Position numbers and translations under genes: made by a program. This document shows positions 4,172 through 63,684 of a stretch of DNA of 64,000 nt, piece after piece (positions within the stretch are counted from its first letter, which is position 1; every line of letters starts with the position of its first letter). Source of the DNA: Alphaproteobacteria bacterium. Lineage in GTDB: Bacteria > Pseudomonadota > Alphaproteobacteria > Micavibrionales > UBA2020. The notes beneath the pieces were generated by a model. The model was not told the DNA's origin. It ran no database searches and saw only the letters and a list, made by a program, of their open reading frames with translations. The stretch lies in assembly GCA_004297545.1 (NCBI GenBank), contig SCTB01000123.1:20630-84629 (forward strand), written 5' to 3'.

Positions 4172-4269
4172 TCATACCCATTCTTATGCGAAATAAAATC
4201 CCTGTTGTTTGCAGCCGGGGCGGGACTAAGATGCGTCATCCTCGCATCATGAAAAGGGAGCGGATTTAA

Positions 4270-5034: not shown

Positions 5035-5982
5035 ATGAAGCGCCTTGCGCTGATCCTCCTTCTGCTGGCGCTCAGTCCCTGCGCGCTGGCCGACGATATC
5101 GCCGCGCGGCGGCAGGCCGCGGAACAGACCGCGCGGCATAACGCGAAATGCGCCGCCATCGGCGATTTCTACTGGGAGATCGGCGACAAGACGGGAAGGC
5201 TGGCCGGCGGCAGTATCGGCAGCGCCTACGGCGCGAACACCAGCCTCCGCATTTATTCCGCCTCCAAGCTCGTTTTCGGCGCCTATGCGCTGGAGAAGAT
5301 GGCGGGCAAGGCGCCGGACGAGCACCAGGTTCACCTGCTGAATATGACGGGCGGCTACGCGCATACGGAGCGCGACTTTCTGGCCTGCAGCTGGTTCGCC
5401 CGCAACATCGCGGCCTGCGCCGAGGAGGGAAAGGCGAATGAGCCGGATCCGGCTGACGTGGGCATTTTCTCCTATGGCAGCCAGGGCGACGAAAGGCTCG
5501 CGGTTGAGCTTGGCCTCGGCGATAAGACGAAGAAGACGATGGCCGCGGAATATAAAAAGTACCTTGGCGACGACCTCGACTTCACCTTCCATTCGCTTCA
5601 GCTGGCGAGCGGCCTGAAATCGACGCCCGGCAATTACGCGCGTTTCCTGCGGAAAATATTGTCTGGACAGCTGCGCATGAAGGAATATCTGGGGACCCAT
5701 GCCGTCTGCGCCTCAAAGAAAGCCTGCCCCGCCAAGGTCGCGCTTACGCCAACCCCTTACGACTGGCATTACAGCCTGAACCACTGGGTTGAGGACGACA
5801 AGGATGGCGATGGCGCTTTCAGCAGCGCCGGACTTCAGGGATTCTATCCGTGGATTTCTGCCGACAAGACCGCCTACGGCCTTGTCGCCCGGCAGGTTTT
5901 CGGCACGCGGTCCTGGGCGGAGAGCGCGTGGTGCGGCATGGCGATCCGCAAAGCATGGACGACGGGGAAAGCCGTCAATTAG
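5035..5982 (+). CDS. Secreted serine hydrolase, beta-lactamase/transpeptidase-like fold (tentative)
   Basis: Signal peptide MKRLALILLLLALSPCALA. SxxK motif (YSASKLV). C-terminal SSAGLQGFYPWISADKTAYGLVARQ resembles the KTG/HxG box region. ATG directly follows the SDR stop. Confidence 0.4.
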   Translation: MKRLALILLLLALSPCALADDIAARRQAAEQTARHNAKCAAIGDFYWEIGDKTGRLAGGSIGSAYGANTSLRIYSASKLVFGAYALEKMAGKAPDEHQVHLLNMTGGYAHTERDFLACSWFARNIAACAEEGKANEPDPADVGIFSYGSQGDERLAVELGLGDKTKKTMAAEYKKYLGDDLDFTFHSLQLASGLKSTPGNYARFLRKILSGQLRMKEYLGTHAVCASKKACPAKVALTPTPYDWHYSLNHWVEDDKDGDGAFSSAGLQGFYPWISADKTAYGLVARQVFGTRSWAESAWCGMAIRKAWTTGKAVN

Positions 5983-6848
5983 GGTTTCGGCGAGGCCTTG
6001 CGCTTCGCAAGGCTTTCTTCCCAGCTCTCAATCACCTGCGTCGAGGTCTTTGAGCCGCCGTGGCCGTCGGCGATGGCGAGGAAGAGGTTTTCCTTCATGT
6101 CGCGCGGAATTTTAAGCACCAGCGCCGTGATGTTGTCGCCGCTGCCGTTTTCATGCGCATAGGCGGCAAAAATCTCGGCAAGGCTGCCGTCTTTCTTCTG
6201 CGCGATGGCGTCCTGCAGCGGCGCGATGTAATCGTCCGGGTCCAGAGTTTCATAAAGACCGTCAGACGACAGGCAGAGGTAAACGTCCCTGCCCGCGTCG
6301 ATTTCCTTTTTCAGGTCGGCGGCCGAAAATTCCGGCTTGCGCGAGACGCCCAGGTATCCGCCGTCGCCGAAAGCGCGGGACAGCATCAGGCTGCCCTCGA
6401 CGCGCCCGTTGGCCGCGACAGTGCCGCCCGCGCGCTCGATGCGCGCCTTTTCGGCAGGTATGGCAGCGTGATGATCTTTGGTCAGCTTGCGCGCGGTAAT
6501 ATCGCCCGTCGCCGGGTCATGCACGAAAACGACCACGGGGCTGTCGCCGAGATAGGCCGCGCTCAGCTGCAAATCCGCCGTCAGCACCAGCGCCGTGCCG
6601 GTCGAGCCCGCGCGGTTTGAATCCGTCTTCTTCGCGGCGGCGCTGAAGATATCGGCGAGGAAAAGTTTCGCCTCGCGGGCGGTGATGTCCAGCGTATCGA
6701 CGAGGTAGCGATCCTCTTGGTATGGCCGTCCGCCGCGGTATGTCGCCATCTGCACGGCGCCGCTGCCGAAAGAAATATCGCGCGATTCATCGCCCGCATG
6801 GGCAGGCACGGGATCTTGCCCGTTCAGGAGTTTTTTCTTGCTTGTCAT
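5979..6848 (-). CDS. PP2C-family Ser/Thr protein phosphatase
   Basis: YRGGRPYQEDRY, LSRAFGD and GSGDNITALVL motifs. Start set to MTSKKKLL (ATG 6846-6848). Confidence 0.8.
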   Translation of the reverse strand: MTSKKKLLNGQDPVPAHAGDESRDISFGSGAVQMATYRGGRPYQEDRYLVDTLDITAREAKLFLADIFSAAAKKTDSNRAGSTGTALVLTADLQLSAAYLGDSPVVVFVHDPATGDITARKLTKDHHAAIPAEKARIERAGGTVAANGRVEGSLMLSRAFGDGGYLGVSRKPEFSAADLKKEIDAGRDVYLCLSSDGLYETLDPDDYIAPLQDAIAQKKDGSLAEIFAAYAHENGSGDNITALVLKIPRDMKENLFLAIADGHGGSKTSTQVIESWEESLAKRKASPKP

Positions 6849-6960
6849 GAGCAGGACTATGCCGAATGCCCGCCATCGGCACAAGGTTGGAATATGTATA
6901 AGTATATGAAAAATAATAAAACTTATCCGCTCTTCCCCACAGGTTTCCCTGTATTTCCTC

Positions 6961-6989
6961 TTGCATTATGTAAATAAATCATTTATATT
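6961..6989 (+). promoter_or_regulatory. Sigma70-like promoter candidate for the small ORFs 7016..7366
   Basis: TTGCAT (6961-6966), 17-nt spacer, TATATT (6984-6989), within an AT-rich tract about 27 nt upstream of the ATG at 7016. Confidence 0.35.
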
Positions 6990-7015
6990 CTTCGGAATCC
7001 CATGGGAGGAAACCG

Positions 7016-7183
7016 ATGAAACAGAATGCATTGAAAACGAACCTGACCACCGAATTGCCCGTCGCGGCAAATGGCAACAGCTGGCAAGCCAGCAGCGGGT
7101 CCGTCACCCTGAAACGCGTCCTGCGCGAATGGAGCGAAACCTCTGACGCCTGCGAAGCGCCCGCAAACGACGCCGCGGAGTAA
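7016..7183 (+). CDS. Small hypothetical protein (55 aa), below ORF-track threshold
   Basis: GGGAGGAAACCG-ATG gives a strong RBS. MKQNALKTNLTTELPVAANGNSWQASSGSVTLKRVLREWSETSDACEAPANDAAE. G/C-rich third codon positions like neighbouring genes. Confidence 0.4.
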   Translation: MKQNALKTNLTTELPVAANGNSWQASSGSVTLKRVLREWSETSDACEAPANDAAE

Positions 7184-7195
7184 GGCCGCTCACAA

Positions 7196-7366
7196 ATGAC
7201 GAAGAAGCCGCCCACCAGCCGTTTCTATACGCAGGTCGTGCCGGGAACAGCGGCCAACGATCAGCCGGCTTCTGCCCCGAAAAAGAAATCCTTCAAAACA
7301 GACGACGACGGCTCCACCCCCATCGACATCAACAACCTGCCGCAGATATGGTCGCGCGAGGAATAA
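7196..7366 (+). CDS. Small hypothetical protein (56 aa), below ORF-track threshold
   Basis: Begins 12 nt after the previous stop. MTKKPPTSRFYTQVVPGTAANDQPASAPKKKSFKTDDDGSTPIDINNLPQIWSREE. G/C-rich third codon positions. Followed by the palindromic element and a T-tract. Confidence 0.4.
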   Translation: MTKKPPTSRFYTQVVPGTAANDQPASAPKKKSFKTDDDGSTPIDINNLPQIWSREE

Positions 7367-7394
7367 CGACGATCCCGCGCTCACGCGTATGCAC

Positions 7395-7490
7395 CACCCC
7401 GATGAAAATCGGGGTCCAGTTTATATAACTTCTACCGCTGAATATTGAGGTAGAAAATTCATATACTGGACCCCGATTTTCATCGGGGTG
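7395..7490. repeat. Nested-palindrome intergenic element (arms are themselves hairpins); possible bidirectional terminator
   Basis: Left arm caccccgatgaaaatcggggtccagtttatata. The right arm is its reverse complement with one indel. Each arm contains ccccgat-gaaa-atcgggg. Followed by gcgttttta. Confidence 0.8.
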
Positions 7491-7516
7491 GCGTTTTTAT
7501 TTGAACGACGCTCGCT

Positions 7517-9805
7517 CTAAGTCCCGCTCTTGTCCTTCGCCTCGGGCGGAGGATTGTTCTGCGCCTGCGCCTTCTGGCGCGGCTTGCGGTCGGTGTGGGG
7601 GTTGTAGCGCTTGGATTTTTTCGCTTCGGCGAGGCGCGGGTTGTGTTCCGCCGTGCCGCGGCCCGAATAGCTCGGGTACTTCATGAAGAAGTCCTGCGCC
7701 GACATCAGCTTGCCGCTCGCCTTGATGCGCTTGTAGGCGCCGTCTTCCTGCAGTTCCCAGCTCTGGCTGTCGTCGAGCAGGTTCGCCATCATGATCTGGT
7801 CGAGCACCTGTTCGTGCACGGTCGGGTTCTTGATTTCGACCATGACCTCGACGCGCGTGTCGAGGTTGCGGCCCATCCAGTCGGCGGAGGCGATATAGAC
7901 TTTCGCCCCGCTGTGCGGCAGGTCTCCGCCGTTCGCGAAGCAGAAGATGCGCGAATGTTCGAGGAAGCGGCCCACAATGCTTTTCACGCGGATATTTTCC
8001 GACAATCCCTTCACGCCGGGGCGCAGGCAGCAGATGCCGCGTACGACGAGTTCTATCTTCACGCCCTTTTGCGATGCGTTATAAAGAGCATCCGTAATCT
8101 CGGGATCGACGAGCGAATTCATTTTCGCCCAGATGCCCGCGGGCTTTCCGGCCTCGGCGTTTTTCACTTCCGCGTCGATCAGATCGAGCAACCGGTGGCG
8201 CATGTCGATGGGCGCCATGATGATATTGGTGAATTTGTCGGGCTTGGCATAGCCGGTCAGGTAATTGAACAGCTTGGCCGCGTCCTGCGCGAGTTCGGGG
8301 TCGCAGGTGAGCAGCGAGAGGTCGGTATAGACGCGCGAGGTCACGGGGTTATAGTTACCGGTGCCGAAATGCGCGTAGGAGCGCAGGCCTTCCGGTTCCT
8401 TGCGCGTCACCAGCGTCACCTTGGCGTGCGTCTTCAGGTTGATGATGCCGTAGATCACCTGCACGCCCGAACGCTCGAGGTCGCGGGCCAGCTTGATATT
8501 GGCTTCCTCGTCGAAGCGCGCGCGCAGCTCGACCACGGCGGTCACGGATTTGCCGTTCTCCGCCGCCTCGATCAGCGCCTTGACGACCGGCGAGTTGGAG
8601 CTGGTGCGATAAAGCGTCTGCTTGATCGAAATGACGTTTTCGTCCGACGCCGCCTGGCGGATAAAGGACATCACCACGTCGAAGGATTCATAGGGGTGGT
8701 GGACGACCAGGTCTTTCGCGCGGATAGCCGCGAAAACATCGCCACCGTAATCGTTGACGCGCTCTGGGTAGCGCGGCACCCAGGGCTTGAACTTCAGGTC
8801 CGGGCGCTCGATGGCGGCCAGCTCGTTCAGGTCGGTCAGGCCGATCATGCCGTCCAGCTGGAACACATTGCGGTGCAAAATGCGCAGGGACGACGTCAGG
8901 AACTTGCGCAGCGTGGCCGGCATATGCTTGTTCAGGATAAGCCCGATGACCGAGCCGCGCTTGCGGGATTTGAGCGCCTTTTCGTAGTGGCTCATCAGGT
9001 CTTCGGCTTCGTCGGAAATCGCGATGTCGGAATCGCGCAGCACCTGGAAGAAGCCGGATTCAACCGCGTGATAGCCGGGGAAGAACGAGGGCAGGAAGAT
9101 GTCTAGCACTTCCTCCAGCGCGATCATGCGCGACGCCTGGCCCGAGAGGCGGATGAAACGCGGCAGCTTCGCCGGCAGCAGGATCAGGGCGGTCATGCGC
9201 GCGGCGCCAATTTCGTCTTCCAGCGTATAGATCGCTGTCAGGCTCTTGTTGGGCAGGAAGGGGAACGGATGCGCAGGATCAATCGCAATCGGCGTCAGCG
9301 TCGGGAAGACGTTGGCCAGGAAAAACGTCTCGACCCATTTTTTCTCGATGGGCGTCAGCTCGGACGCGGCCACAAGGTTGATTTTCTCATGGGCGAGCCC
9401 GTGCATGAGGTCGGTCAGGCATTCCTGCTGGTCGTCCATCATCTTGCGGGCGAGCTTCAAAATCTGCGGCAGCTGCTGGGCGGCGGTCTGACCGTCGTCG
9501 CTGACGGCTTCGGCGCCGCGCGTGATCTGGTCGTTGATGCCCGCCACGCGGACCATGAAGAATTCCTCGAGGTTCGAGGCGGAGATGGACAGGAACCGCA
9601 CGCGCTCCAGCAGCGGGTTCGCGGGATTCCTTGCCTCGGCCAGCACGCGCATATTGAAGCGCAGCCAGGAAATTTCGCGGTTGAGATATTTTGTGTGCAG
9701 CTGGTTCGGCTGCTGCTGCGTCAAATCCTGCCCCTGGGCATCCGGCCCGGTGACGACGATATTCGGCAGGTTCCGCGCCGATATGTCTGAAGGAGTTTGT
9801 GACAT
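7517..9805 (-). CDS. ppk: Polyphosphate kinase 1
   Basis: YLNREISWLRFNMRVLAEA, ERVRFLSISASNLEEFFMVRVAG, and two PLD-like HKD-type regions. 762 aa, with extra N- and C-terminal low-complexity extensions. Confidence 0.95.
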   Translation of the reverse strand: MSQTPSDISARNLPNIVVTGPDAQGQDLTQQQPNQLHTKYLNREISWLRFNMRVLAEARNPANPLLERVRFLSISASNLEEFFMVRVAGINDQITRGAEAVSDDGQTAAQQLPQILKLARKMMDDQQECLTDLMHGLAHEKINLVAASELTPIEKKWVETFFLANVFPTLTPIAIDPAHPFPFLPNKSLTAIYTLEDEIGAARMTALILLPAKLPRFIRLSGQASRMIALEEVLDIFLPSFFPGYHAVESGFFQVLRDSDIAISDEAEDLMSHYEKALKSRKRGSVIGLILNKHMPATLRKFLTSSLRILHRNVFQLDGMIGLTDLNELAAIERPDLKFKPWVPRYPERVNDYGGDVFAAIRAKDLVVHHPYESFDVVMSFIRQAASDENVISIKQTLYRTSSNSPVVKALIEAAENGKSVTAVVELRARFDEEANIKLARDLERSGVQVIYGIINLKTHAKVTLVTRKEPEGLRSYAHFGTGNYNPVTSRVYTDLSLLTCDPELAQDAAKLFNYLTGYAKPDKFTNIIMAPIDMRHRLLDLIDAEVKNAEAGKPAGIWAKMNSLVDPEITDALYNASQKGVKIELVVRGICCLRPGVKGLSENIRVKSIVGRFLEHSRIFCFANGGDLPHSGAKVYIASADWMGRNLDTRVEVMVEIKNPTVHEQVLDQIMMANLLDDSQSWELQEDGAYKRIKASGKLMSAQDFFMKYPSYSGRGTAEHNPRLAEAKKSKRYNPHTDRKPRQKAQAQNNPPPEAKDKSGT

Positions 9806-12507: not shown

Positions 12508-12516
12508 CAAAACGTC

Positions 12517-12620
12517 GTCATGCCCGCCTTGCGCGGGCATCCGGAGCGTGTCTACGCGTCATATGACTCATATGCGCGGCGGACGCCACGCGCCGGATGC
12601 CCGCGCAAGGCGGGGGTGAC
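12517..12620. repeat. Nested-palindrome intergenic element (GTCATGCCCGC...GCGGGCATCCGG type)
   Basis: gtcatgcccgccttgcgcgggcatccgg ... ccggatgcccgcgcaaggcgggggtgac. Inverted arms, each a hairpin. Confidence 0.8.
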
Positions 12621-12633
12621 GGTAAGGTCTGAT

Positions 12634-27082: not shown

Positions 27083-27230
27083 CTCCTCTCCCCCGTTCGC
27101 GAAGCGAATGGAGGGAGAGGATTAAGGTGAGGGGGTGTTTCAGCAAAAACAGCCAGTTGTATTGTTGCACCGCCCCCTCACCCTGACCCTCTCCCTCCCG
27201 CTTCGCGGGGGGAGAGGGGATAAATGGCTT
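27083..27230. repeat. 'Empty' pair of G/C-rich hairpinned inverted-repeat arms (same superfamily as the cargo-carrying elements)
   Basis: The left arm ...ctctcccccgttcgcgaagcgaatggagggagaggattaaggtgagggggtg and the right arm caccgccccctcaccctgaccctctccctcccgcttcgcggggggagagg... are reverse complements separated by only 40 bp. Confidence 0.75.
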
Positions 27231-35757: not shown

Positions 35758-36396
35758 TTATTTCGGCTGCGGCGGCGCGGGCGGTTTCGGCTGCGGGCGG
35801 CGCGCGATTTTATCGTTCAGATCGTCGATATCGACTTCGGCAATAATGCCGCGCGCCTTGTATTTGGGTATCTTCCAGAATTCGCGCAGGACCGCGCTGC
35901 GGAAACTGCGGTCGGAAAACCATTTGTCGCGATCCGCGCCGAAAGTATTGGGCGCCGTGAACATCTTTGTGACCGACGGCCAGTGTTTTTCCAGCGTCAT
36001 CAGGAAGCGTCGCGAGCCATGTATCTGCCCGATGCCCAGCACGGAATGGATTTTGCCGAACTCCTTCGTATTTTTCAGGAGCTGCATCGTTTCGATCACA
36101 TTCTCGCCCGTGTTCGTGGCCTTATCCTCGACGCGGATGGCGCTTTCCGGCACGCCCAGCGCGACGAGCCTGTCATGCATCTGATGGCATTCGAACGTGC
36201 CCTTGCTGGTCGGCACGCCGCCCGAGACGACGATCAGCGGAAAATAGCCCTTGTGATATAAATCCGCCGCGCGCTCCGCCAGCGCATCCGCCTGCTCGCC
36301 GCCGAACAGCAGGCACAGGTCCGCCTTCGCGAGACGCGTTTCGACGAGCATGTACTCGCCAACTTTTTTCAGGAATTCTTCCGTTAACTTTTTCAT
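35758..36396 (-). CDS. YdcF/ElyC (DUF218) family protein
   Basis: LIVVSGGVP...GVPESAIRVEDKATNTGENV signature. C-terminal tail ...RRPQPKPPAPPQPK. Confidence 0.7.
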   Translation of the reverse strand: MKKLTEEFLKKVGEYMLVETRLAKADLCLLFGGEQADALAERAADLYHKGYFPLIVVSGGVPTSKGTFECHQMHDRLVALGVPESAIRVEDKATNTGENVIETMQLLKNTKEFGKIHSVLGIGQIHGSRRFLMTLEKHWPSVTKMFTAPNTFGADRDKWFSDRSFRSAVLREFWKIPKYKARGIIAEVDIDDLNDKIARRPQPKPPAPPQPK

Positions 36397-36767
36397 TTAA
36401 TTTCCTTTGCCGAAGGCAAAGTCGTCAGTCCCCTCTCCCTCTGGGAGAGGGCTAGGGTGAGGGTACTTACAACACCCTCCAGATTGTCCTCCACTTCATT
36501 ATTCCAGAAGCGGATAACTTCATACCCAAGCTTATTAAGATATTTTGTGCGCGCCGCATCCTTCTTGCTCTCGCAATGTTGCCCGCCATCAACTTCAACG
36601 ATCAGTTTAAGTTCGAGGCATACGAAATCGGCGATGTAAGGACCAATAGGAAGCTGGCGGCGGAAGATGTACTTCAAATGATCATTGCGAAGGCAATTCC
36701 ACAACAGACACTCCGCATCTGTCTGCTCCCGTCGTAGCTTCCGCGCTCTTTGAACAGACTTTGCCAT
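36393..36767 (-). CDS. DUF559 (Vsr-like fold) endonuclease-domain protein
   Basis: RARKLRREQTDAECLLWNCLR...FRRQLPIGPYIADFVCLELKLIVEVDGGQH...KTKYLNKLGYEVIRFWNNEV. Start ATG 36765-36767. The C-terminal about 20 aa is read-through of the left arm, and the stop overlaps the ATG of 35758..36396. Confidence 0.8.
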   Translation of the reverse strand: MAKSVQRARKLRREQTDAECLLWNCLRNDHLKYIFRRQLPIGPYIADFVCLELKLIVEVDGGQHCESKKDAARTKYLNKLGYEVIRFWNNEVEDNLEGVVSTLTLALSQRERGLTTLPSAKEIK

Positions 36768-36850
36768 TTTACGTTCTTCCGTAGGTAGTACCCTCACCCT
36801 AGCCCTCCCCCAGAGGGGGAGGGGACTAACGACTTTCGCTACGCGAAAGG
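36404..36850. mobile_element. Inverted-repeat-bounded cassette carrying a DUF559 endonuclease gene (no transposase)
   Basis: The 64-bp arms at 36404-36467 and 36787-36850 are reverse complements: cctttgccgaaggcaaagtcgtcagtcccctctccctctgggagagggctagggtgagggtact versus cctttcgcgtagcgaaagtcgttagtcccctccccctctgggggagggctagggtgagggtact. Differences are compensatory within the local hairpins. The interior is AT-richer. Confidence 0.75.
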
Positions 36851-36879
36851 AAATATAATCCTTAACTTGCAGCCCTGAC

Positions 36880-43386: not shown

Positions 43387-43477
43387 CGTACTTTTCCTCA
43401 CCCTCTGGGTGAGGAAGGGGCCCGCGCCGAAGGCGTGGGAAGGTGGGGGTACTTTGTGCAGGGATTGGAATGATTGA

Positions 43478-43918
43478 ATGACGACGATAAGTAAAGAGCT
43501 GAAGGAGCTATTTGCGAAGATCAATTCGACAGCGGATTTTTGTTACGTTGAATTCTCAGATGTCAATACGACGAATGCCTTGGGTGAGAACGCCCTTCAT
43601 ATTGCTGTTAGATGGGGCGAGATTGACGCCGTAAAACTGCTGATTTCGTCGGGAGCCGACATTAACAAACACGGTGAATACGGATACACCCCTCTTCATT
43701 ATGCAGCCGAATGCGGCTACCAAGAGATAGTAAAACTGCTACTTGATTCAGGGGCAAACCCGTTCGCCCGCACCGAAGGAGATATACCATCTACATTGGC
43801 ACGATTTAAAGACAATAAGACCATTTGTGATTTGTTAGATGAGTACATGCGTAAGTCGCCGTACCGGCCCAAAGGGTGGATATTCAGCGGAGAAGACCTT
43901 ATAAACCGGAAAGACTAA
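43478..43918 (+). CDS. Small ankyrin-repeat protein
   Basis: GENALHIAVRWGEIDAVKLLISSGADINKHGEYGYTPLHYAAECGYQEIVKLLLDSGANP. Confidence 0.8.
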   Translation: MTTISKELKELFAKINSTADFCYVEFSDVNTTNALGENALHIAVRWGEIDAVKLLISSGADINKHGEYGYTPLHYAAECGYQEIVKLLLDSGANPFARTEGDIPSTLARFKDNKTICDLLDEYMRKSPYRPKGWIFSGEDLINRKD

Positions 43919-43946
43919 ATCGTGTAAAAATGGCGGAGCTTGAAAC

Positions 43947-44300
43947 ATGGATGTAAAAGTTATCACACTCCCCACCGATCAGATTACAGACTGGAATAGC
44001 TTTCATTCCGTGTGTAAGGACGTTTTTGGTTTTCCAGACTTCTACGGCAGGAATATGAATGCTTGGATTGACTGCATGACCTCCGTCGATTGCGCGGAGG
44101 ACGGCATGACGACTGTAAATGTTGCTGATGGAGGGCTATTAGTTATCAGAGTCGACAATGCAGCAGAATTCAAAAAGCGTTGTCCGGAAGAGCATGAAGC
44201 ATTGATAGAGTGTGCAGCTTTCGTAAACTATCGGCGCATAGACGTTAAGGGGCAGCCTGTTTTGGCGCTCATGTTAATAGGCGATTATCCGAACCCATAG
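43947..44300 (+). CDS. Barstar-like ribonuclease-inhibitor family protein
   Basis: I..W..FH....DVFGFPDFYGRNMNAWIDCM matches the barstar N-terminal signature (FP.YYG.N.DA..D). 117 aa. Confidence 0.55.
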   Translation: MDVKVITLPTDQITDWNSFHSVCKDVFGFPDFYGRNMNAWIDCMTSVDCAEDGMTTVNVADGGLLVIRVDNAAEFKKRCPEEHEALIECAAFVNYRRIDVKGQPVLALMLIGDYPNP

Positions 44301-44379
44301 AATTCATTGCACGGAGTACCCCCACCTTCCCGCGCTTCGCGCGGGCCCCTTCCTCCCTCAAAGGAGAGGAGAAAAAATT

Positions 44380-44810: not shown

Positions 44811-44919
44811 GGTATATCTCCCCGTATTTGGTATCGGAGTACAATGCCGTGAGTCGCGGATTCTGTCAAATGTGAAATTTTAAGAGGTTGGTTTTGTTTG
44901 ATTATTTTCAAAAATTTAC

Positions 44920-45016
44920 GTCACCCCCGCGCAGGCGGGGGACTGGCCGCCGCCGCAAGGCGGCCTTTATAAAGGCGCTTCGCGCGGGCCGGATGCCCGC
45001 CTGAAGCGGGCATGAC
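44920..45016. repeat. Full-length bipartite nested-palindrome element
   Basis: gtcacccccgcgcaggcgggggactggcc...cctttataaagg...gccggatgcccgcctgaagcgggcatgac. Ends 6 nt before the priA stop. Confidence 0.85.
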
Positions 45017-48642: not shown

Positions 48643-48667
48643 GTCCAGTTATAATCACTTTATAGGC

Positions 48668-48765
48668 GTCATGCCCGCGAAGGCGGGCATCCGGCACACG
48701 GCAACGCCGCATTGATAAAAGCGCACTTTCGTGCGCTGCCAGACCCCCGCCTTCGCGGGGGTGAC
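48668..48765. repeat. Full-length bipartite nested-palindrome element (inverted orientation)
   Basis: gtcatgcccgcgaaggcgggcatccggc...attgataaaagc...ccagacccccgccttcgcgggggtgac. Confidence 0.85.
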
Positions 48766-48780
48766 GTCGAGGGGAAAGAC

Positions 48781-52716: not shown

Positions 52717-53343
52717 GTGAACGACATAACTAGAAAGGCGGCCTTGAAAATGACGCAGTTCGCATTGAAAATTTTCAGGTTTTTCGTTTTCATCGGCCTT
52801 CTTGCGCTTATGGCGCCGCGCGCCCAGGCCGCCGACATCCCCGCCTATGCCGGCCCCGGGTCGGAAGACCTCACGAAAACCATCACGTCCGGCCCCAGCC
52901 CGTCTGCGTCGGAGGAAGTGCCGCTCGACAAGCCGAACATCGAGATCACCGCGCTGCTGCCCTGGGTCGCCGATACGGTGACCGGCTCCCTGAACCTGCA
53001 GCCGAAGGATTACAAGGAAACCCTGCATAATGCGGCGCGCAGCTTCACGCGCGATGGCTGGGTGGATTTCACGCGGATGCTGCAGAAGTACCGCGTCATC
53101 ACGAACCTGCAGCAGAACGACCAGACGGTCTCGGTCGTGCCCGGCTCGCCGTCGCTTTCGCGCGAGGATATCGAAGACGGCATCTACCGCTGGAGCATCA
53201 CGATGCCCGTCACCATCAACTATTTCAGCGAGAAGGATTCCCACACCGACTACATCATCCTCAACCTCATGGTCGTTCGCGTCCCGCGCAAGGACAACAT
53301 CCTGGGCATCAGCATTTCGAAGTGGCTGGAGGCGGAGAGGTAG
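52717..53343 (+). CDS. IcmL/DotI-like protein (type IVB secretion-associated family), orphan
   Basis: N-terminal TM/signal segment, then W..........DY......A...FT.DGW.DF...L...........Q.VS.VPG.P......I.DG.Y.W.I.MPV.I.Y.........I.L.L.V.RVP......LGISI..W. This follows the IcmL/DotI core pattern as I recall it. Start is GTG 52717 or ATG 52750. Confidence 0.5.
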   Translation: MNDITRKAALKMTQFALKIFRFFVFIGLLALMAPRAQAADIPAYAGPGSEDLTKTITSGPSPSASEEVPLDKPNIEITALLPWVADTVTGSLNLQPKDYKETLHNAARSFTRDGWVDFTRMLQKYRVITNLQQNDQTVSVVPGSPSLSREDIEDGIYRWSITMPVTINYFSEKDSHTDYIILNLMVVRVPRKDNILGISISKWLEAER

Positions 53344-53355
53344 CATCACTCTTCT

Positions 53356-53456
53356 GTCATGCCAGCGAAAGCTGGTATCTCTGAAATTTAAAATCATCCC
53401 CGCTCCGCGGGAATGTCCCTATTAAATAGAGCGATGCCAGCTTTCGCTGGCATGAC
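53356..53456. repeat. Nested-palindrome intergenic element (GTCATGCCAGC type)
   Basis: gtcatgccagcgaaagctggtatctct ... agagcgatgccagctttcgctggcatgac, with a central hairpin tccccgc-tcc-gcgggaa. Confidence 0.8.
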
Positions 53457-53485
53457 AATATATCCGGGGTGAAGTTCGGGATAGC

Positions 53486-53518
53486 AAAAAAACCGCCCCG
53501 GTTGTGACACCGGGGCGG
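53486..53518 (-). terminator. Rho-independent terminator for 53545..54198
   Basis: On the minus strand: ccgccccgg-tgtcacaa-ccggggcgg followed by ttttttt. Confidence 0.65.
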
Positions 53519-53544
53519 CTTTGTATTCAGTCGGGGGACTTCAC

Positions 53545-54198
53545 TTACATCCCGTGTCCGCCGTGGCCGCCGCCGAAACGGGGGGGCTTCGGCTTATTCA
53601 CGTTTTTTGGCTGAGCCGCCGCCGCTTTGTCCAGCGCTTCGAGGGCTGCATGTGACTTTTTCGCGGCGTCTTCGAAGACGGTGTCGAGGGCCGGATCCTG
53701 GCCTTTCACGGTCGCGAACTGGCGCTCGAGGTCGTTGAGGATATTCCAGCGCGTCTGGTGGTGGGCGTCGATCCTTTTGCGGTTGACCATCTGGTCGTTC
53801 ATGGTCGAGATGCCTTCGCAGATGAAGATGCGGTTCATGTCGCGGGTCATGTTCGCGTCGGGCGTGACGGAGGGATCCACCATCGCCTGCAGCAGGTCGA
53901 CCGTGCGGTCGCCGAAGATATGGCGCGCGGCGGCTTCGGTTTCTGCGTTGGCGAGCAGCGTGCCCTTGGCGGGGCCCAGCAGCAGCAGGTTGATGCTCTC
54001 TTCCGAATAATCCGGGCAGTTGTCGATCACGCGTTTCGCGGCCGCGATGGGCTGGTTGTGCATGAAGTTCTTGATGCGCTCCGGGCCGAACATCGACATG
54101 TTTTCGTTCAGCCATTCGTAGCAGATGCCGACGGCGACCTTGAAGCGGTTGTTGTCGGGCAGACCGGAAGTCGAAAAGTCAAAGGTATCTTCAGCCAT
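53545..54198 (-). CDS. Hypothetical protein with P/K-rich, Gly/His C-terminal tail
   Basis: 217-aa ORF with no recognised domain. Tail ...AAAAQPKNVNKPKPPRFGGGHGGHGM. Occupies the position where recR is usually found downstream of ybaB. Confidence 0.5.
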   Translation of the reverse strand: MAEDTFDFSTSGLPDNNRFKVAVGICYEWLNENMSMFGPERIKNFMHNQPIAAAKRVIDNCPDYSEESINLLLLGPAKGTLLANAETEAAARHIFGDRTVDLLQAMVDPSVTPDANMTRDMNRIFICEGISTMNDQMVNRKRIDAHHQTRWNILNDLERQFATVKGQDPALDTVFEDAAKKSHAALEALDKAAAAQPKNVNKPKPPRFGGGHGGHGM

Positions 54199-54223
54199 TA
54201 TCTTCTCCTTAGGGGGTTAATGA

Positions 54224-54547
54224 TTAAAACGGTAAATCCATGTTGGGCGGCAACCCCATTTCCTGCATGAGCCTGCCGGTTTCGTCGGCCATCGCCTTTT
54301 CCGCACGCGCGCGGGCGTCGTTGACGGCCGCGATGATCAGGTCTTCCATCACCTCGGCGTCATCCGCCTTGATGAGGGAGCGGTCCACTTTCAGGGCTTT
54401 CAGCTCGTGCTTGCCCGTCATGCGGCAGGTCACCATCCCCTGCCCCGCTTCGCCCTGCACTTCCATCTGGTGCGCCCGGTCCTGGAGGTCCTGCATCTTC
54501 TGCTTGAACTTCTGGGCCTTCTGCATCATCTGGGCAAAATTGGTCAT
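54224..54547 (-). CDS. ybaB: Nucleoid-associated protein YbaB/EbfC
   Basis: MTNFAQMMQKAQKFKQKMQDLQDRAHQMEVQGEAGQGMVTCRMTG.HELK.LK.D..L...D.E.(M/L)EDLI.AA.NDA. Start ATG 54545-54547. Confidence 0.85.
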   Translation of the reverse strand: MTNFAQMMQKAQKFKQKMQDLQDRAHQMEVQGEAGQGMVTCRMTGKHELKALKVDRSLIKADDAEVMEDLIIAAVNDARARAEKAMADETGRLMQEMGLPPNMDLPF

Positions 54548-54783
54548 GGCTTTAGGGTCAGCGATCTGGTCACGTGTTAAGGTTTTGGAACTGGGACGAA
54601 CCGTATAGACGGAGGGCGGCGGAGTCAACCCGCCTTGGCCGGTATAACGGTTTGTTTTTGCTCAGCATTTGAATGACACTGATTTTCAGTTGAGCGGCTG
54701 TTCGGTTTATGTTAAATTTGAGCCGGAATACCCCGGCAAATCAAGGCGCTGCGGGAACAAAGAAACAGTCACCAAGAGGGTGC

Positions 54784-55557
54784 ATGCCAGCACAGGATTT
54801 CAAGGACGCCGCTGCCCGGGACCAGTTCAAGCTGGAAGTGGCGCGGTTCTTCTCCTCCGTCTCCGCCAACGAGGTGGACGGCGTGCTGAAATTCGTCATG
54901 AACCACCCGAAGGAAGCAGCCACGCTGAAAAGCAGCGATGGCATCACCGCGCTGATGTTCGCCGCGCGCGAAGGGTATAAAGAGACCGCCTGGCTGCTGA
55001 TCCATGCCGCGCCCCAGGACCTGGAGGTCGGCAACGCCAATGAATCAACCGCGCTGATGTTCGCGGCCCATGCCGGCAAGGCGACCATCGTGGCCCTGCT
55101 GCTGGAAGCGGGCGCCGACGTCAACCACGTCAACAAGAACGGCCATACGCCGCTGATGTCGGCCTCCGCCAACGGCTTTAAAAACACAGTCGAGCAGCTT
55201 TTGAAATTCAATGCCGACATCACGCCCAAGGACGCCGAGGGAAATACCGCGCTGGATTACGCGCGGGAGAACGGCTTTACCGACATCGAAAAAATGATCG
55301 CGACCGCCGCCGTGACGCAGCAGGCGGTGCGCGAGAAGGCTGCCGCAGAGGCCAAAGCCCGCGCGGTGGAGGAAAACCGCCCCATCATCTCCGACGACAA
55401 CGGCGAGTCCCTCAAAGACCTCGAGCGCCGCATGATGAAGGCGAATCTCGCCTATCCCGTCAAGCCGCAGGACGACCCCGACAAGGCGAAAGACGACGCC
55501 AGCGCCGCCGAAGCCCGCCGGGTACTGAAAGATCTTTCCAAGGATATGGGGCGGTAG
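54784..55557 (+). CDS. Ankyrin-repeat protein
   Basis: ITALMFAAREGYKETAWLLIH...; STALMFAAHAGKATIVALLLEAGADVNHVNKNGHTPLMSASANGFKNTVEQLLKFNADI...GNTALDYARENGFTDI. Confidence 0.8.
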   Translation: MPAQDFKDAAARDQFKLEVARFFSSVSANEVDGVLKFVMNHPKEAATLKSSDGITALMFAAREGYKETAWLLIHAAPQDLEVGNANESTALMFAAHAGKATIVALLLEAGADVNHVNKNGHTPLMSASANGFKNTVEQLLKFNADITPKDAEGNTALDYARENGFTDIEKMIATAAVTQQAVREKAAAEAKARAVEENRPIISDDNGESLKDLERRMMKANLAYPVKPQDDPDKAKDDASAAEARRVLKDLSKDMGR

Positions 55558-55560
55558 CCG

Positions 55561-56243
55561 CTCTCCTCCCCTTTGGGGGAGGAAGGGGCCCGCACGAAGT
55601 GCGGGAAGGTGGGGGGTACTCCGTGCAACAGAGTGGCTGGTTAGAAGTTTAAATCACGACTGAACACGAATGCTCATGAGTCTTCTGAGTGTCAATGCTT
55701 CTTCCGAAAAATCGAGCTCATTTTGCGCTTTTTGGCCCGTGCAATATTAGCAACCACGCTTCGTACAGCTTCGCCAATGTGCAGGGCAATAAACTACGTG
55801 CCCATTGTCTTTTGTGTTTTTTAGTATCGTTGAAGTTTAACTCCTCGACAAACGAAACATCGATTGCATTTTTTAAATCATCATTACCGTTTTCGTAGGC
55901 CCACTCTGCCAACTTATACGCTTTTGTCACTTGCTCCCGGTCACCAGAATCTATCAGCTGTTGCACTAATCTGCGAAAGACCGCCATTTCAAAATGAAGT
56001 AAACCTTGTTCCTTGTTGATTTCCAGCTCAACTGCGGGAAATGTTGCCTTTAGCTGTTTGAGAAATTCACTCCTATGGACTTTTGTCATTTTTTCCGGCG
56101 CCCCCGCCCGTTTTCCACAATCTACTTTATCATTCATTCATTTTTATTCGTAGTTCAAACTATTCACTATCTATGTAACTTCACAGAGTACCCCCACCTT
56201 CCCGCACTTCGTGCGGGCCCCTTCCTCCCCCAAAGGGGAGGAG
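55561..56243. mobile_element. Inverted-repeat-bounded cassette carrying one AT-rich orphan gene (no transposase)
   Basis: Left arm: ctctcctcccctttgggggaggaaggggcccgcacgaagtgcgggaaggtggggggtactccgtg. Reverse complement of right arm: atctcctcccctttgggggaggaaggggcccgcacgaagtgcgggaaggtgggggtactctgtg. Only 2 differences. Fills the gap between two convergent stops. Confidence 0.8.
55718..56089 (-). CDS. Hypothetical helical protein (123 aa), cassette cargo; immunity-protein-like by context only
   Basis: MTKVHRSEFLKQLKATFPAVELEINKEQGLLHFEMAVFRRLVQQLIDSGD...NAIDVSFVEELNF. Markedly AT-rich. An alternative upstream ATG at 56137 exists. Confidence 0.5.
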   Translation of the reverse strand: MTKVHRSEFLKQLKATFPAVELEINKEQGLLHFEMAVFRRLVQQLIDSGDREQVTKAYKLAEWAYENGNDDLKNAIDVSFVEELNFNDTKKHKRQWARSLLPCTLAKLYEAWLLILHGPKSAK

Positions 56244-56247
56244 ATTC

Positions 56248-57297
56248 TCACGCCGCCTGATCGCGGTAGCGCAGCATCGAGAACCCCATCAGCAGGAACA
56301 AGACGCCCACGCCGCCAAGACCGCCCGGCAGCAGCCAGTTCATCCAGCCGCGGTCGATGACGGCGGAGGGCTGGGGCATATCCGGAAGGTAGAGAACCGT
56401 CACATCGTCGCCGGTGCGGTAGGACGGATGGCTGGACCCGAAGCCGTCGCGGAACCGCACGTTGCGGCCCTTGTCATCCCGGAATTCGACGACGGGATAA
56501 TAAGAAGTATCGCCGTCGCTGTTGCGGGAGGTCTCCAGCGCTACGACCTTGCCCTCCGCGCGGGTGCCGTGCTCGGTCAGGCTGATCATTTTCTGGCCGA
56601 AGTGATACCCGCCGTATATCATCGCGCAGCCGATAACAAGAAGGATGGGCATGGCGATGCGGGCCTGCTGGCGTTCCTGCACAACCGCCCGGATGCCCTC
56701 GGGCGTGTCCCGGAATTCCTCCATCGTGGTGAGCGAGCTGCTTTCCCATTCCTTCGCGCGCTCGGCCTTGCGCTTTTCCTTCCACTCCGCCACCGTGCCG
56801 CGCTGTTCTTTCGGGATGATGTGCCGGCGGATTTTCAGCGCAGCCATCAGCACAAGGACGCCGATCATGCCATAGGAATAGACCGTCAGCGGATAGGAGA
56901 ACAAGGCGATTTTCAGGAACAGGATTCCGGGGCCGAGAAAGAACAGGCCCACAATCAGGTAGAGAATGGAAGCGGCGGGCCGCGCCTCCTCCGGCTTGTC
57001 GGGAAAAATCATCAGCCGCACCGCCTTGCCCGTTTCCATGCCGCGCATGCTGTTGGTGCCGGTGGAGGAGATCGTCTCGCGCTGCTCGCCCGAGCCGAGG
57101 ATGTAACGGTAGACGGGATAATAATAGATGCCCTTTTTCCGCACGCCGATGATGGTGGCGTCGACGCGCTCTGCCTTCAGCCGCCAGTACAGCCCGTTGC
57201 CGATGATGCCGGCGCCGATCAGAAAGCAAAGCCCGCCGCCCAGAATCATGGCGGCCTGCTGGAATGCCATCATGCCGTTAAAGAAAAGGTCTAACAT
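56248..57297 (-). CDS. Membrane protein with two DUF3592-like domains
   Basis: TM segment followed by a beta-rich module, twice (…RVDATIIGVRKKGIYYYPVYRY...GKAVRLMIFP; …GTRAEGKVVALETSRNSDGDTSYYPVVEFRDDKGRNVRF...GDDVTVLYLP). Starts 7 nt after the dnaX stop. Confidence 0.65.
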   Translation of the reverse strand: MLDLFFNGMMAFQQAAMILGGGLCFLIGAGIIGNGLYWRLKAERVDATIIGVRKKGIYYYPVYRYILGSGEQRETISSTGTNSMRGMETGKAVRLMIFPDKPEEARPAASILYLIVGLFFLGPGILFLKIALFSYPLTVYSYGMIGVLVLMAALKIRRHIIPKEQRGTVAEWKEKRKAERAKEWESSSLTTMEEFRDTPEGIRAVVQERQQARIAMPILLVIGCAMIYGGYHFGQKMISLTEHGTRAEGKVVALETSRNSDGDTSYYPVVEFRDDKGRNVRFRDGFGSSHPSYRTGDDVTVLYLPDMPQPSAVIDRGWMNWLLPGGLGGVGVLFLLMGFSMLRYRDQAA

Positions 57298-57304
57298 CGA
57301 AGAC

Positions 57305-58951
57305 TTAGGACTTTGTCCGGATATCGATGATCTTCGCGCCGGGGAAGATTTTGAGAGCTTCGGCGACGACGGGGGAGGATTTGACGTCGTCCATCACCGA
57401 CTGCGCCTCGGTCTGGATACGTTCGCCCAAGGTCGGCTCGCCCTGCTCGCGGGAGAGGCTGACGATCCAGCGCTCACCCGTCCATTCCTTTAGGCGCTCC
57501 GACATCTGGCCGATGAGGTTCTGCGGCGCGCCTTCCTTGACGCGAACGGCCAAGTGCCCACGCTCGAACTTCACCAGATGCACGAAGTTTGAAATCTGCT
57601 GCTGCAATAAAACCTGCCGCTTGACGCCGAACAGCGCGACCGCTTCAGCGAAGGAATTGATGGCGACCGCCTGCCCTTCCTGCGGTTCGGCGATGGCCTG
57701 CGCGGTGGCGGACACGGCCGATACGCTGCGCATCACGGTCGCCCCGCGCGGGGCCCCGCCGCCTGCGGGCGCGCCGCCGCCCATGCTGACGGTCGAGCCG
57801 TCTTTCAGCTGCTTGAGCACGTCGCCCGGCGTCGGCTGGTCCGACACATACAGCAGGCGTATCAAAATCATTTCCAGCGCGTTCTGCGTGTTCTGGGCAT
57901 AGGAAACTTCCGATACGCCCTTCAGCAGCATCTGCCAGGCGCGCGTGAGCACGGGAATGGACAGGTTTTTCGCCAGTTCCGCGCCGCGCACGCGCTCGGC
58001 TTCCGGCAGGGCCTTGTCCTTCGCGGTTTCGGGCGCGACCTTGACGCGCGTGAGGTAATGGTTGAGGTCGAGCAGGTCCTGCAGCACCATGAGCGGTTCC
58101 GCGCCCGCCTTGTAAAGGCTGTCAAGAAGCCCCAGCGTGCCCGCGGTGTCGCCCTTCATGAGGGCCTCGAACAAATCCAGCGTGACGGCGCGGTCGGCGA
58201 GGCCCAGCATGTCGCGCACGCCGGCTTCGGTGATCTTGCCCTGCTCGCGCGAAATCGCCTGATCGAGCAGACTTAAACCGTCACGCGCCGAACCGTCGGC
58301 CGCGCGGGAGACAAGGGCGATGGCGCCCGGTTCCGCCGTGACTTTCTCTTTCGCCAGCAATTCGCCGAAATAGGCTTCCAGCACGCCCGCATCGATGCGG
58401 CGCAAATCAAAGCGCTGGCAGCGCGACAGGACGGTCACCGGAACCTTGCGGATTTCGGTGGTCGCGAAAACGAACTTCACATGCACCGGCGGCTCTTCCA
58501 GCGTTTTCAGCAGCGCGTTGAAAGCGCCCTTGGACAGCATATGGACTTCGTCGATGATGAAGATCTTGTAGCGGCCCGAAACCGGCGCGTATTGAACGGT
58601 GTCAATCAGGTCGCGGATATTCTCGACGCCGGTGTGGGACGCCGCGTCCATTTCCAGCACGTCGACATGGCGGTCCTCGGAAATCGCCTTGCACTGCTCG
58701 CAGGCGCCGCAGGGGGTGGGCGTGGGGCCTTTTTCGCAGTTCAGCGCGCGGGCGATGATGCGGGCGGTCGTCGTCTTGCCGACGCCCCGGACGCCGGTCA
58801 GCATAAAGGCATGGGCGATGCGGCCGGTTTCGATGGCGTTGGTCAGCGTGCGCACCAGCGCATCCTGGCCCTTGAGCTCGGCGAAGTTTTTGGGGCGGTA
58901 TTTGCGCGCCAGAACGCGGTATTCGGTCGACTCGGCACCCTGTTTGGCCAC
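57305..58951 (-). CDS. dnaX: DNA polymerase III subunit gamma/tau
   Basis: YRVLARKYRPKNFAELKGQD..., Walker A GVRGVGKTT, zinc module CEKGPTPTPCGACEQC, DEVHML, SRCQRF. Confidence 0.95.
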   Translation of the reverse strand: MAKQGAESTEYRVLARKYRPKNFAELKGQDALVRTLTNAIETGRIAHAFMLTGVRGVGKTTTARIIARALNCEKGPTPTPCGACEQCKAISEDRHVDVLEMDAASHTGVENIRDLIDTVQYAPVSGRYKIFIIDEVHMLSKGAFNALLKTLEEPPVHVKFVFATTEIRKVPVTVLSRCQRFDLRRIDAGVLEAYFGELLAKEKVTAEPGAIALVSRAADGSARDGLSLLDQAISREQGKITEAGVRDMLGLADRAVTLDLFEALMKGDTAGTLGLLDSLYKAGAEPLMVLQDLLDLNHYLTRVKVAPETAKDKALPEAERVRGAELAKNLSIPVLTRAWQMLLKGVSEVSYAQNTQNALEMILIRLLYVSDQPTPGDVLKQLKDGSTVSMGGGAPAGGGAPRGATVMRSVSAVSATAQAIAEPQEGQAVAINSFAEAVALFGVKRQVLLQQQISNFVHLVKFERGHLAVRVKEGAPQNLIGQMSERLKEWTGERWIVSLSREQGEPTLGERIQTEAQSVMDDVKSSPVVAEALKIFPGAKIIDIRTKS

Positions 58952-63565: not shown

Positions 63566-63684
63566 CCGTAACCCCGGCGAAAGCCGGGGTCTAAACTCTC
63601 TCAGTCTTCCGGTGGTAGCTGTGCAGGACTATAACCACCGGAGAGCGGATAAACCTTAGACCCCTGCTTTCGCAGGGGTTACGG
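63566..63684. repeat. Nested-palindrome intergenic element (CCGTAACCCC type)
   Basis: ccgtaaccccggcgaaagccggggtctaa ... ttagacccctgctttcgcaggggttacgg, with an inner inverted repeat ccggtggt...accaccgg. Confidence 0.8.

Follow-up and report, generated by a model that had tools for sequence, protein, structure and literature searches.

In a 64,000-nt stretch of an alphaproteobacterial genome (order Micavibrionales, lineage UBA2020; assembly GCA_004297545.1, contig SCTB01000123.1, positions 20,630 to 84,629), called the window below, a single AT-rich gene of the Pfam family DUF7674 is enclosed by two inverted, hairpin-rich arms and lies between the stop codons of two convergent genes, which encode an ankyrin protein and a DUF3592 protein. 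The finding is real and not a one-off: the element is one of three gene-bearing palindromic scaffolds within 64 kb, and among relatives, the same site is empty, occupied or differently occupied. The explanation that we favour, which in our judgment stands an even chance of being correct, is that this DUF7674 element (55562-56244, the 55.5-kb element) represents a cassette with a single gene, non-autonomous and exchangeable, that is housed in a palindromic scaffold similar to dimers of repetitive extragenic palindromic (REP) sequences or to miniature inverted-repeat transposable elements (MITEs), and that it is gained and lost by recombination at its arms.

The DUF7674 element and its arm family

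An inverted-repeat search identified arms at 55562-55615 and 56191-56244 that are 54 nt long, 100% complementary and separated by 575 nt. Read by eye, the arms extend inward beyond this core for about 11 positions (TACTCCGTGCA on the left, to 55627, and TTCACAGAGTA on the right, from 56180; the inner ends compare as TACTCCGTGCA against TACTCTGTGAA), so that the full arms of about 64-66 nt differ by one indel (G6 versus G5) and two substitutions. The near-identical 64-bp arms described in an earlier, sequence-only reading of this DNA are thus confirmed, although its count of two differences has to be enlarged by the indel. The sub-motifs of the arms gave 0.00 chance matches in 100 shuffles. On the plus strand, the loop of the outer hairpin (HP1; Table 1) reads CAAA in the right arm, as opposed to TTTG in the left arm; therefore, the right arm is a true inversion and not a direct repeat or a target duplication produced by a staggered cut.

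The element is a single gene between two housekeeping-type genes. The left arm starts 4 nt after the ankyrin stop codon (TAG, 55555-55557), and the right arm, which ends at 56244, is followed after 3 nt by the DUF3592 stop codon (56248-56250, minus strand), so that the element indeed fills the gap between the two convergent stops, as had been noticed before. The GC content is 0.416 between the arms, compared with 0.66-0.69 in the arms and 0.589 for the window. No recombinase or transposase is encoded inside the element, no stable fold was found in the inner modules on the 5' and 3' sides of the gene, and a consensus scan detected no sigma-70-type promoter within it; the 5' module may hold expression signals. 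A consensus scan for intrinsic terminators in the arms was likewise negative, the hairpins being present but having no T-tract on the one strand or the other. A further probable role of the arms is that of hairpin insulators or terminators facing the two host transcripts that converge here.

An nhmmer profile of the arms matched exactly four places in the window (E 2e-19 to 2e-23), namely, the two arms at 55.5 kb and the two around a second cassette at 43392-44375, so that the suspected likeness between the two cassettes is reproduced by formal alignment. Both hairpins of the arm, HP1 and the inner HP2, are predicted to form as structures of single-stranded DNA, with z between -2.75 and -4.76 across the four arms. 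Among 22 arms from the window and other genomes, the stem of HP2 shows compensatory changes (RNAalifold counts), with the variants GCAC/GTGC, GCGC/GCGC, GCGCC/GGCGT, GCCGC/GCGGC and CATGGC/GCCATG, and the single-stranded motifs GAGG-AAGGGG and GGG-AAGGTGGGGG are fixed across genera. Fixed boxes beside covarying stems are expected of a structure that is recognised by a protein, or of a functional folded nucleic acid. In the RNAalifold analysis of 14 arms, the C-rich 5' half of HP1 preferentially paired with the GGTGGGGG box, enclosing HP2; this alternative fold could serve as a structural switch, and the G-runs of the arms could form a quadruplex. An Rfam search of the region 43-57 kb (E up to 1) returned no match to the arms of the DUF7674 element, and the sole overlap was a sub-threshold one, of scr4677 with the left arm of the 43.4-kb cassette.

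Cargo-less forms of the arms exist. In a scan of one genome per species, Azospirillum sp. TSO22-1 alone had the arm core, at 10 places spread over 8 contigs, where the copies are palindromes of 150-170 bp that consist of an arm, about 42 nt and a mirror arm, the second arm often without HP2. A metagenome scan added four more short palindromes in soil-metagenome contigs; in contig L013, the arms are near-identical to those of the window, including the inner TACTCCGT end, and enclose an AT-rich centre of about 34 nt, and the centres of other metagenome copies reach about 165 nt. The arm query gave a single weak Azospirillum match in a plasmid collection and none in viral contigs. Judged by these copies, the arm family (HP1, HP2 and G-box) normally consists of cargo-less palindromes of 150-200 bp that resemble REP dimers or MITEs. 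The DUF7674 element is therefore a member of the family whose centre has grown to 575 nt, a gene included.

The same site in relatives

Relatives were found via orthologs of the DUF3592 gene, and the percentages given below are identities of this flanking protein. The syntenic order is dnaX, DUF3592 and, in the opposite orientation, ankyrin, followed by ybaB and DotI/IcmL. In L019 (83%), only 29 nt, AATCTCCTCCCCTTTGGGGGAGGAGAGTT, separate the two stop codons, and they hold HP1 alone (TCTCCTCCCCTTTGGGGGAGGAGA), identical to HP1 of the window; in L021 (84%), the gap of 35 nt contains a different but equivalent covarying hairpin, TTCCTCTCT-TAA-AGGAGAGGAA. Thus, the insertion that had been suspected is supported as an insertion-type polymorphism, with one short hairpin and no cargo between the stops of the relatives at 83-84%. 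The earlier reading had suggested looking for a precise empty site; the cargo is missing from gaps of 29 and 35 nt, in which a hairpin stays between the stops. The P0020 contig (86%) has a gap of 139 nt, which is too short for a gene, and the P0023 contig (78%) ends 63 nt past the stop, that is, after about one arm length. In the relatives compared, arms and cargo are not conserved together at this site; such conservation in distant relatives would have spoken against the earlier reading.

The most divergent relative, L020 (70%), has 1.33 kb between the two genes, comprising a GC-rich open reading frame (ORF) of 174 codons, an AT-rich segment with an ORF for a 136-aa membrane protein, and one arm, which adjoins the ankyrin gene. 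The 174-aa product (L020 2407-2931) has a zinc-ribbon-like N-terminus and transmembrane segments, and its ORF lies where the second arm would be expected. Homology between L020 and the window covers two non-coding modules, one of about 90 nt that reaches from the arm to the 3' end of the ORF and one of about 45 nt upstream of the ORF: the local alignment scores of the two modules are 42 and 39 versus shuffle means of about 17 (3' module: mean 16.9, sd 3.0), 0 of 1000 shuffles reach either score, and the 5' module also gives a BLAST match of 21 nt at 90%. The ORFs themselves are unrelated, as 161 of 300 shuffles score equally well. The internal order of window and L020 is arm, 3' module, ORF, 5' module, arm, of which L020 itself has one arm, and the L020 segment is oriented oppositely relative to the flanking genes; since only one arm is present, this orientation is unambiguous. 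Either a long-lived scaffold at this site has had its ORF replaced and was turned around by recombination between its inverted arms, or two cassettes that belong to one family docked independently at the same hairpin.

The comparison with L020 also bears on the question of whether the element could be an assembly artefact, in which a low-GC fragment of another organism was joined to the contig through the repeated arms. Two points would fit such a mis-join: the genome was assembled from a metagenome, and an independent Logan contig with an identical DUF3592 gene stops inside the arm. However, assemblies are expected to break at an inverted repeat even when nothing has been joined wrongly, the fragment would need both arms in its true genome, so that the element would still be real, and L020, an independent assembly, joins AT-rich cargo to the same arm type at the same site. 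We consider an artefact very improbable.

The favoured explanation, an exchangeable cassette, would work as follows. In relatives, a short hairpin lies between the convergent ankyrin and DUF3592 genes; the scaffold would stand in its place and would have at its centre the DUF7674 gene, acquired horizontally and flanked on each side by about 90 nt of non-coding DNA. Gain, exchange, inversion and loss would proceed via recombination at the arms, at the palindromic HP1 ends and at the inner modules, carried out by the host or by a trans-acting nuclease and not by an enzyme borne on the cassette. The alleles indicate how this might happen. Read by eye in the DUF3592-to-ankyrin direction, the window has GAATCTCCTCCCCTTTGGGGGAGGA (AGGGG ... 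cargo ... CCCCTTCCTCCCCCAAAGGGGAGGA) GAGCGG and L019 has AAATCTCCTCCCCTTTGGGGGAGGAGAGTTT, so that the occupied allele and the L019 allele differ by the bracketed segment, at both edges of which the octamer GGGGAGGA is found. The inverted arms contain these 8-nt direct repeats because HP1 is itself a palindrome. If slippage or recombination took place between the octamers, only a single HP1 would be left of the element, as in L019, and the reverse event would allow a cassette to dock at any similar hairpin.

It should be noted that several points weigh against this explanation. Movement has not been observed, and all of the evidence comes from metagenome assemblies, in which short reads can lead to a mis-called orientation between perfect inverted repeats. 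With a length of 54-64 nt, the arms offer little sequence for efficient recombination by RecA, and a cargo-less copy of exactly this arm subtype is absent from the 64-kb window. The inner modules were not found in the other two gene-bearing cassettes of the window and could be locally inherited rather than part of a mobile unit. The neighbour-joining tree of the flanking protein, ((((window,P0020),L021),L019),P0023),L020, gives no polarity of gain versus loss, as it is built from a single protein.

Alternatively, the element could be a classical non-autonomous transposon, that is, a mobile insertion cassette or a MITE with a passenger gene, with the arms as terminal inverted repeats for a transposase encoded elsewhere (of the DDE or the HUH/RAYT type, the latter being REP-associated tyrosine transposases) and transposition of the whole unit. 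Inverted arms that flank a passenger gene with no enzyme inside would fit this scenario, as would the multicopy, MITE-like short forms in another genome and the hairpin-rich ends, which suit single-strand HUH enzymes. Nevertheless, we regard it as unlikely. A target-site duplication is missing at all three insertions inspected: the flanks are GCCGC and TTCTC for the DUF7674 element, GCGTAC and TTGTCG for the 43.4-kb cassette, and GTTTCT and TTAGCG for L013, and since no direct repeat flanks these elements, cut-and-paste transposition of the DDE type is disfavoured. No transposase was found beside any copy examined. REPs are recognised by a conserved GTAG or CGTC tag at the foot of the hairpin (PMC3733652); neither tag is present at the hairpin feet of the four arms, all of which have GTAC about 13 nt from HP2. 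In addition, the empty site keeps one full HP1 and is not a clean target, and a different ORF in the same backbone at the same site fits exchange in place better than repeated transposition.

In the wider neighbourhood, the usual dnaX-ybaB pair is interrupted by the DUF3592 gene and the oppositely oriented ankyrin gene in the window (52717-58951), L019, L020 and L021. The contigs of the relatives carry the DotI/IcmL gene (type IVB secretion) and more ankyrin and Sel1 genes a few kilobases away, a gene content that suggests a host-associated lifestyle.

The cargo gene and the other cassettes of the window

The product of the cargo gene matches Pfam DUF7674 (PF24722) with E 2.9e-22 and 79.3 bits (cut-off 27) over model positions 2-106 of 111. 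Besides the cargo itself, whose own protein record is labelled as a metagenome-assembled alphaproteobacterium, 17 homologs with 42-74% identity were found in the protein collection, and all 18 aligned sequences match the model; hence, the gene is not the orphan without a nameable domain for which it had been taken. No exact-sequence record was found for the 139-aa or the 123-aa form, a query of a plasmid collection with the DUF7674 protein gave no match, and no literature on the family was found. From the first ATG, the ORF has 139 codons; because the alignment of the homologs begins at MHRSEF, the start at 56089, which gives 123 aa, is likely. The GC content of the gene is 0.422 and that of its third codon positions (GC3) is 0.452, compared with a GC3 of 0.75-0.83 in six host genes, and the ratio of non-synonymous to synonymous substitution rates (dN/dS) versus the 74%-identical homolog is about 0.05, with dS saturated. 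These values mark the gene as compositionally foreign and as being under purifying selection.

The AlphaFold model (pLDDT 85) is all-helical with seven helices, in agreement with the AT-rich helical protein described at the outset (GC3 0.45). A Foldseek search (E < 0.1) returned no structural neighbour of the predicted fold in the PDB or BFVD, NCBIfam, PADLOC and PHROGs gave no useful match, and a PDB sequence profile matched designed helical proteins only. The proposal that the gene encodes an immunity-type protein is therefore not borne out by family membership, as immunity families were matched neither in Pfam, NCBIfam, PADLOC and PHROGs nor by fold in the PDB and BFVD, and no toxin gene adjoins the cargo. 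An immunity or anti-toxin role would nevertheless be possible by analogy, with circumstantial support from the Barstar gene of the sister cassette, from a homolog that is an integron cassette and from a gene overlap at another homolog.

The integron homolog (P0004, 55%) is a cassette in a genuine integron array on contig L011, where the attC core pattern was present in 11 of 19 scanned gaps and the first nine sites, of about 97-115 bp, form one conserved family. This chromosomal array (671-9600, attC of about 100 bp) also holds HicAB and an SMI1_KNR4 gene. The closest homolog (74%, contig L017) has no arms and is a low-GC gene in a high-GC context. Read by eye, the stop codon of an upstream ORF and the start codon of this homolog overlap (...YTDYDNAQLLQIYMNAHPRAKS*, L017 1-90), the partner being cut by the contig end, and the overlap hints at a possible two-gene operon. 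Taken together, the view that the cargo is a mobile, cassette-type small gene is supported.

Two further gene-bearing cassettes lie in the window. The earlier reading noticed neither the third cassette nor the cargo-less forms of the arm family nor the different ORF that fills the scaffold of a relative. The sister cassette at 43.4 kb has diverged arms of the same family; compensatory changes set its hairpin stems apart from those at 55.5 kb, and the GC3 of its cargo is about 0.50. The third cassette carries a gene of the family DUF559 (GC3 0.53) and has arms of a related family, 73 nt long and 86% complementary, which are composed of a GAAG-loop hairpin, a CCCTCTCC/GGGAGAGGG hairpin and the box CTAGGGTGAGGGTAC, with GGGTGAGGGTAC as the cargo-side end. 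The start of the DUF559 gene lies 22 nt within one arm and its end within the other, the last approximately 25 codons of the gene being encoded by the arm itself (cassette at 36395-36859). The motif GGGTGRGGGTAC, with one mismatch allowed, has 5 matches in the window, all at cassette arms, versus 0.23 expected. A palindrome of about 140 bp at 27083-27222 is the empty counterpart, within this genome, of the scaffold of the DUF559 cassette.

Palindromic repeats of several families are abundant in the genome, and this would be compatible with a static fossil, that is, with a foreign gene that landed by an unrelated route and around which REP-like units accumulated later, or with DNA that entered an existing REP dimer, without any cassette behaviour. 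DNA inserted between the partners of a REP dimer has indeed been noted before (PMC3733652). However, two independent insertions would then have to yield perfect 54-nt mirror copies that end at the same inner base, the arrangement recurs in three gene-bearing cassettes of one plan within 64 kb, each around low-GC genes, and a different ORF is found in the same backbone in L020. In view of these points, a fossil appears quite improbable, and the exchangeable cassette remains the explanation that we prefer.

Palindromic dimers of another family are located at 7394-7491, 12516-12621, 44918-44977, 48667-48767 and 63566-63684 (for example, CGTCATGCCCGC-GAAG-GCGGGCATCC); these dimers resemble the CGTC-tagged REPs of Alphaproteobacteria (PMC3733652). 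A palindromic intergenic element at 53340-53475 (TGTCATGCCAGCGAAAGCTGGTATC ... mirror) has a sub-threshold Rfam match to WsnRNA46, a Wolbachia sRNA (44 bits versus a gathering threshold of 65).

Known systems and a possible role of DUF559

Bacterial interspersed mosaic elements (BIMEs) of enterobacteria and Rhizobium-specific intergenic mosaic elements (RIMEs) of rhizobia are intergenic, modular combinations of palindromic units and linker motifs. The arms described here share this organisation of palindromic units with conserved linkers between genes, but we know of no element of the BIME/RIME type that encloses a gene. The pdif modules of Acinetobacter plasmids are recombinase-less gene modules between inverted 28-bp XerC/XerD sites that are shuffled among replicons. 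They resemble the DUF7674 element in being short, recombinase-less and bounded by inverted sites, but its boundaries are 64-nt GC-rich hairpin mosaics, in which no dif-like sequence is evident, although no formal search was made. Integron cassettes are likewise small, foreign, often promoter-less single genes that are exchangeable at a fixed site; here, however, the repeats are inverted around the gene instead of directly repeated after it, and there is no array, integrase or attI. An integron cassette was rejected as an identification of the element itself because the 90 nt 3' of the ORF contain no attC core pair (RYYYAAC ... GTTRRRY) and no stable fold, and no array is present.

Mobile insertion cassettes (MICs), such as MIC231 in Bacillus cereus, and MITEs with passengers share with the element the inverted terminal repeats, the one or two genes, the lack of a transposase and the coexistence with cargo-less miniatures. 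Known MICs, among them the qnrS2 MIC of Aeromonas (PMC5444012) and the Tn3-type MICs in Xanthomonas (PMC4337579), differ in having the ends of an identifiable insertion sequence or Tn family and target duplications, whereas the element has no known parent transposon, its arms are hairpin mosaics, and one ORF has taken the place of another at a single chromosomal site while the backbone was conserved. The element also has a likeness of form to REP dimers, also known as REPINs, and to REPtrons (Bertels & Rainey 2011, PMC3116915; PMC3337134; Di Nocera et al. 2013, PMC3733652). REP dimers consist of GC-rich hairpin units in inverted pairs that can be folded into one long hairpin across a short spacer; the element has inverted, hairpin-bearing arms, with a much longer spacer. 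Like the arm family, REP dimers are intergenic, often between convergent genes, multicopy and without target duplication; a REPtron, one gene flanked by inverted REPs, has the very geometry of the DUF7674 element. The differences are that the GTAG or CGTC tag is missing, the spacer is 575 nt with a foreign gene instead of tens of nucleotides (the L013 and Azospirillum forms do have short spacers), the enclosed gene is not a RAYT transposase, and each arm is a mosaic of two hairpins and conserved G-rich single-stranded boxes. No RAYT gene was found in the window, the ORFs of which were not screened exhaustively for Y1 transposases. Because defining features of each of the REPtrons, MICs and integrons are missing, we place the element among the non-autonomous inverted-repeat elements, outside the named families.

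The third cassette raises the question of a mobiliser. To our knowledge, DUF559 is a very widespread nuclease-fold family without an assigned role. In a tblastn search with the DUF559 cargo against plasmid and chromid records, 39 records were found, and 10 loci were inspected (Table 1). A unit made up of a CCCTCNCC hairpin and a GGGTGRGGG-type box brackets the gene or lies upstream of it in Sinorhizobium, Deinococcus, Novosphingobium, Sphingomonas, Azospirillum, Shinella and Synechocystis. No relevant literature was found that links DUF559 to repeats or that describes genes inside REP dimers.

Table 1. Features of the DUF7674 element, of the other cassettes and palindrome in the window, and of DUF559 loci in other genomes
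Feature	Position	Strand	Description
Left arm	55562..55627	+	DNA fold -22.4 kcal/mol, z = -3.95; nhmmer E 1.6e-21
HP1 of left arm	55564-55583		stem TCCTCCCC/GGGGAGGA, 8 bp, loop TTTG
HP2 of left arm	55589-55605		CCCGCAC-GAA-GTGCGGG
G-box of left arm	55606-55616		AAGGTGGGGGG; G-rich box AAGGTGGGGG
Inner end of left arm	55617-55627		TACTCCGTGCA
Non-coding module 3' of cargo ORF	55628..55717	-	common to L020 cassette; local alignment, no stable fold
Cargo gene DUF7674	55718..56089	-	123 aa; extension to 56137 possible, 139 aa
Non-coding module 5' of cargo ORF	56090..56179	-	core 56112-56132 (minus strand) fits TGATAAWGTAGATTGTRGAAA, common to L020 cassette
Right arm, inverted copy of left	56180..56244	-	DNA fold -17.2 kcal/mol, z = -4.76; nhmmer E 6.6e-23
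Sister cassette, same arm family	43392..44375	+	arms about 43392-43460 and 44308-44375
Ankyrin cargo of sister cassette	43478-43918		146 aa; Pfam Ank E 5.6e-21
Barstar-family cargo of sister cassette	43947-44300		117 aa; Pfam Barstar E 3.1e-15
Third cassette, DUF559 (Vsr-like endonuclease fold)	36395..36859	-	related arm family; Pfam DUF559 E 3.3e-38
Cargo-less short palindrome, GGTGAGGGG type	27083..27222		HP1, AAGGTGAGGGGG, about 37 nt, mirror image
Sinorhizobium meliloti DUF559			inverted repeats of 114-117 nt, 96%; CCCTCTCCCC hairpin + CTAGGGTGAGGGG unit faces gene
Deinococcus proteolyticus DUF559			58-nt inverted repeats exactly flanking ORF
Novosphingobium DUF559			52-nt inverted repeats
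Sphingomonas DUF559			30-38-nt inverted repeats
Azospirillum lipoferum DUF559			28-nt inverted repeats
DUF559 with upstream unit only			Azospirillum brasilense (including HP2-type module), Shinella, Synechocystis, possibly Methylobacterium
Neisseria DUF559			remote 21-nt AT-rich repeat of different kind only
DUF559 units in other genomes	L025 1355-2044; L026 498-970; L030 536-994; L024 1360-1947; L023 1328-1852; L022 1336-1454; L028, L031 upstream regions		

One interpretation of this association is a homing-type system, in which the DUF559 nuclease encoded in the 36.4-36.9 kb cassette would cleave palindromes that lack cargo, and repair would then copy a cassette in via arm homology; the DUF7674 cassette would then be a nuclease-less hitch-hiker. 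The cargo position of DUF559 in a cassette of the same plan, the empty palindrome of matching type at 27083-27222, the inverted repeats of 28-117 nt that bracket DUF559 genes at 5 of the 10 other loci examined and the presence, at four more, of a hairpin with a GGGTGAGGG-type unit upstream only (the fourth, Methylobacterium, being a possible case) all fit this interpretation. However, the DUF559 arms differ from those at 55.5 kb in module order and G-box (GGGTGAGGG versus GGTGGGGG), DUF559 has no known nuclease activity or target, the loci of Azospirillum TSO22-1 that hold the closest short forms contain no DUF559 gene, and repeats may simply accumulate around a neutral gene. Homing is, in our opinion, doubtful and ranks below a transposon. 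At a similarly low level of confidence, the DUF559 nuclease can be named as a candidate trans-acting mobiliser, homing-like or recombination-stimulating, which is a lead for further work. An equally speculative extension is that the palindromes with the CCCTCNCC hairpin and the GGGTGRGGG box might constitute an undescribed cassette system, in which the palindrome would be the docking scaffold and DUF559 the ancestral mobilising cargo, replaced in some lineages by DUF7674, by ankyrin plus Barstar or by a membrane protein. If true, this system would parallel the REP/RAYT REPtron, with a nuclease as the driving enzyme and with the delivery of cargo as an additional property. The REPs that predominate in Alphaproteobacteria are without a known transposase (Di Nocera et al. 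2013, PMC3733652), and the link to DUF559 provides a concrete, testable candidate both for the role of this family and for the mobiliser of the alphaproteobacterial REPs.

Independently of the mobiliser, the exchangeable-cassette explanation would have a wider meaning. Short palindromic repeats (REPs, REPINs and MITEs) are usually viewed as gene-free selfish or regulatory DNA. Here, such repeats enclose single foreign genes three times in 64 kb, and repeats of this type may be places at which single foreign genes dock. If the palindromes are docking scaffolds, they would represent a route of gene acquisition that is parallel to integrons, one that is invisible to gene-centred annotation and at which short-read assemblies tend to break.

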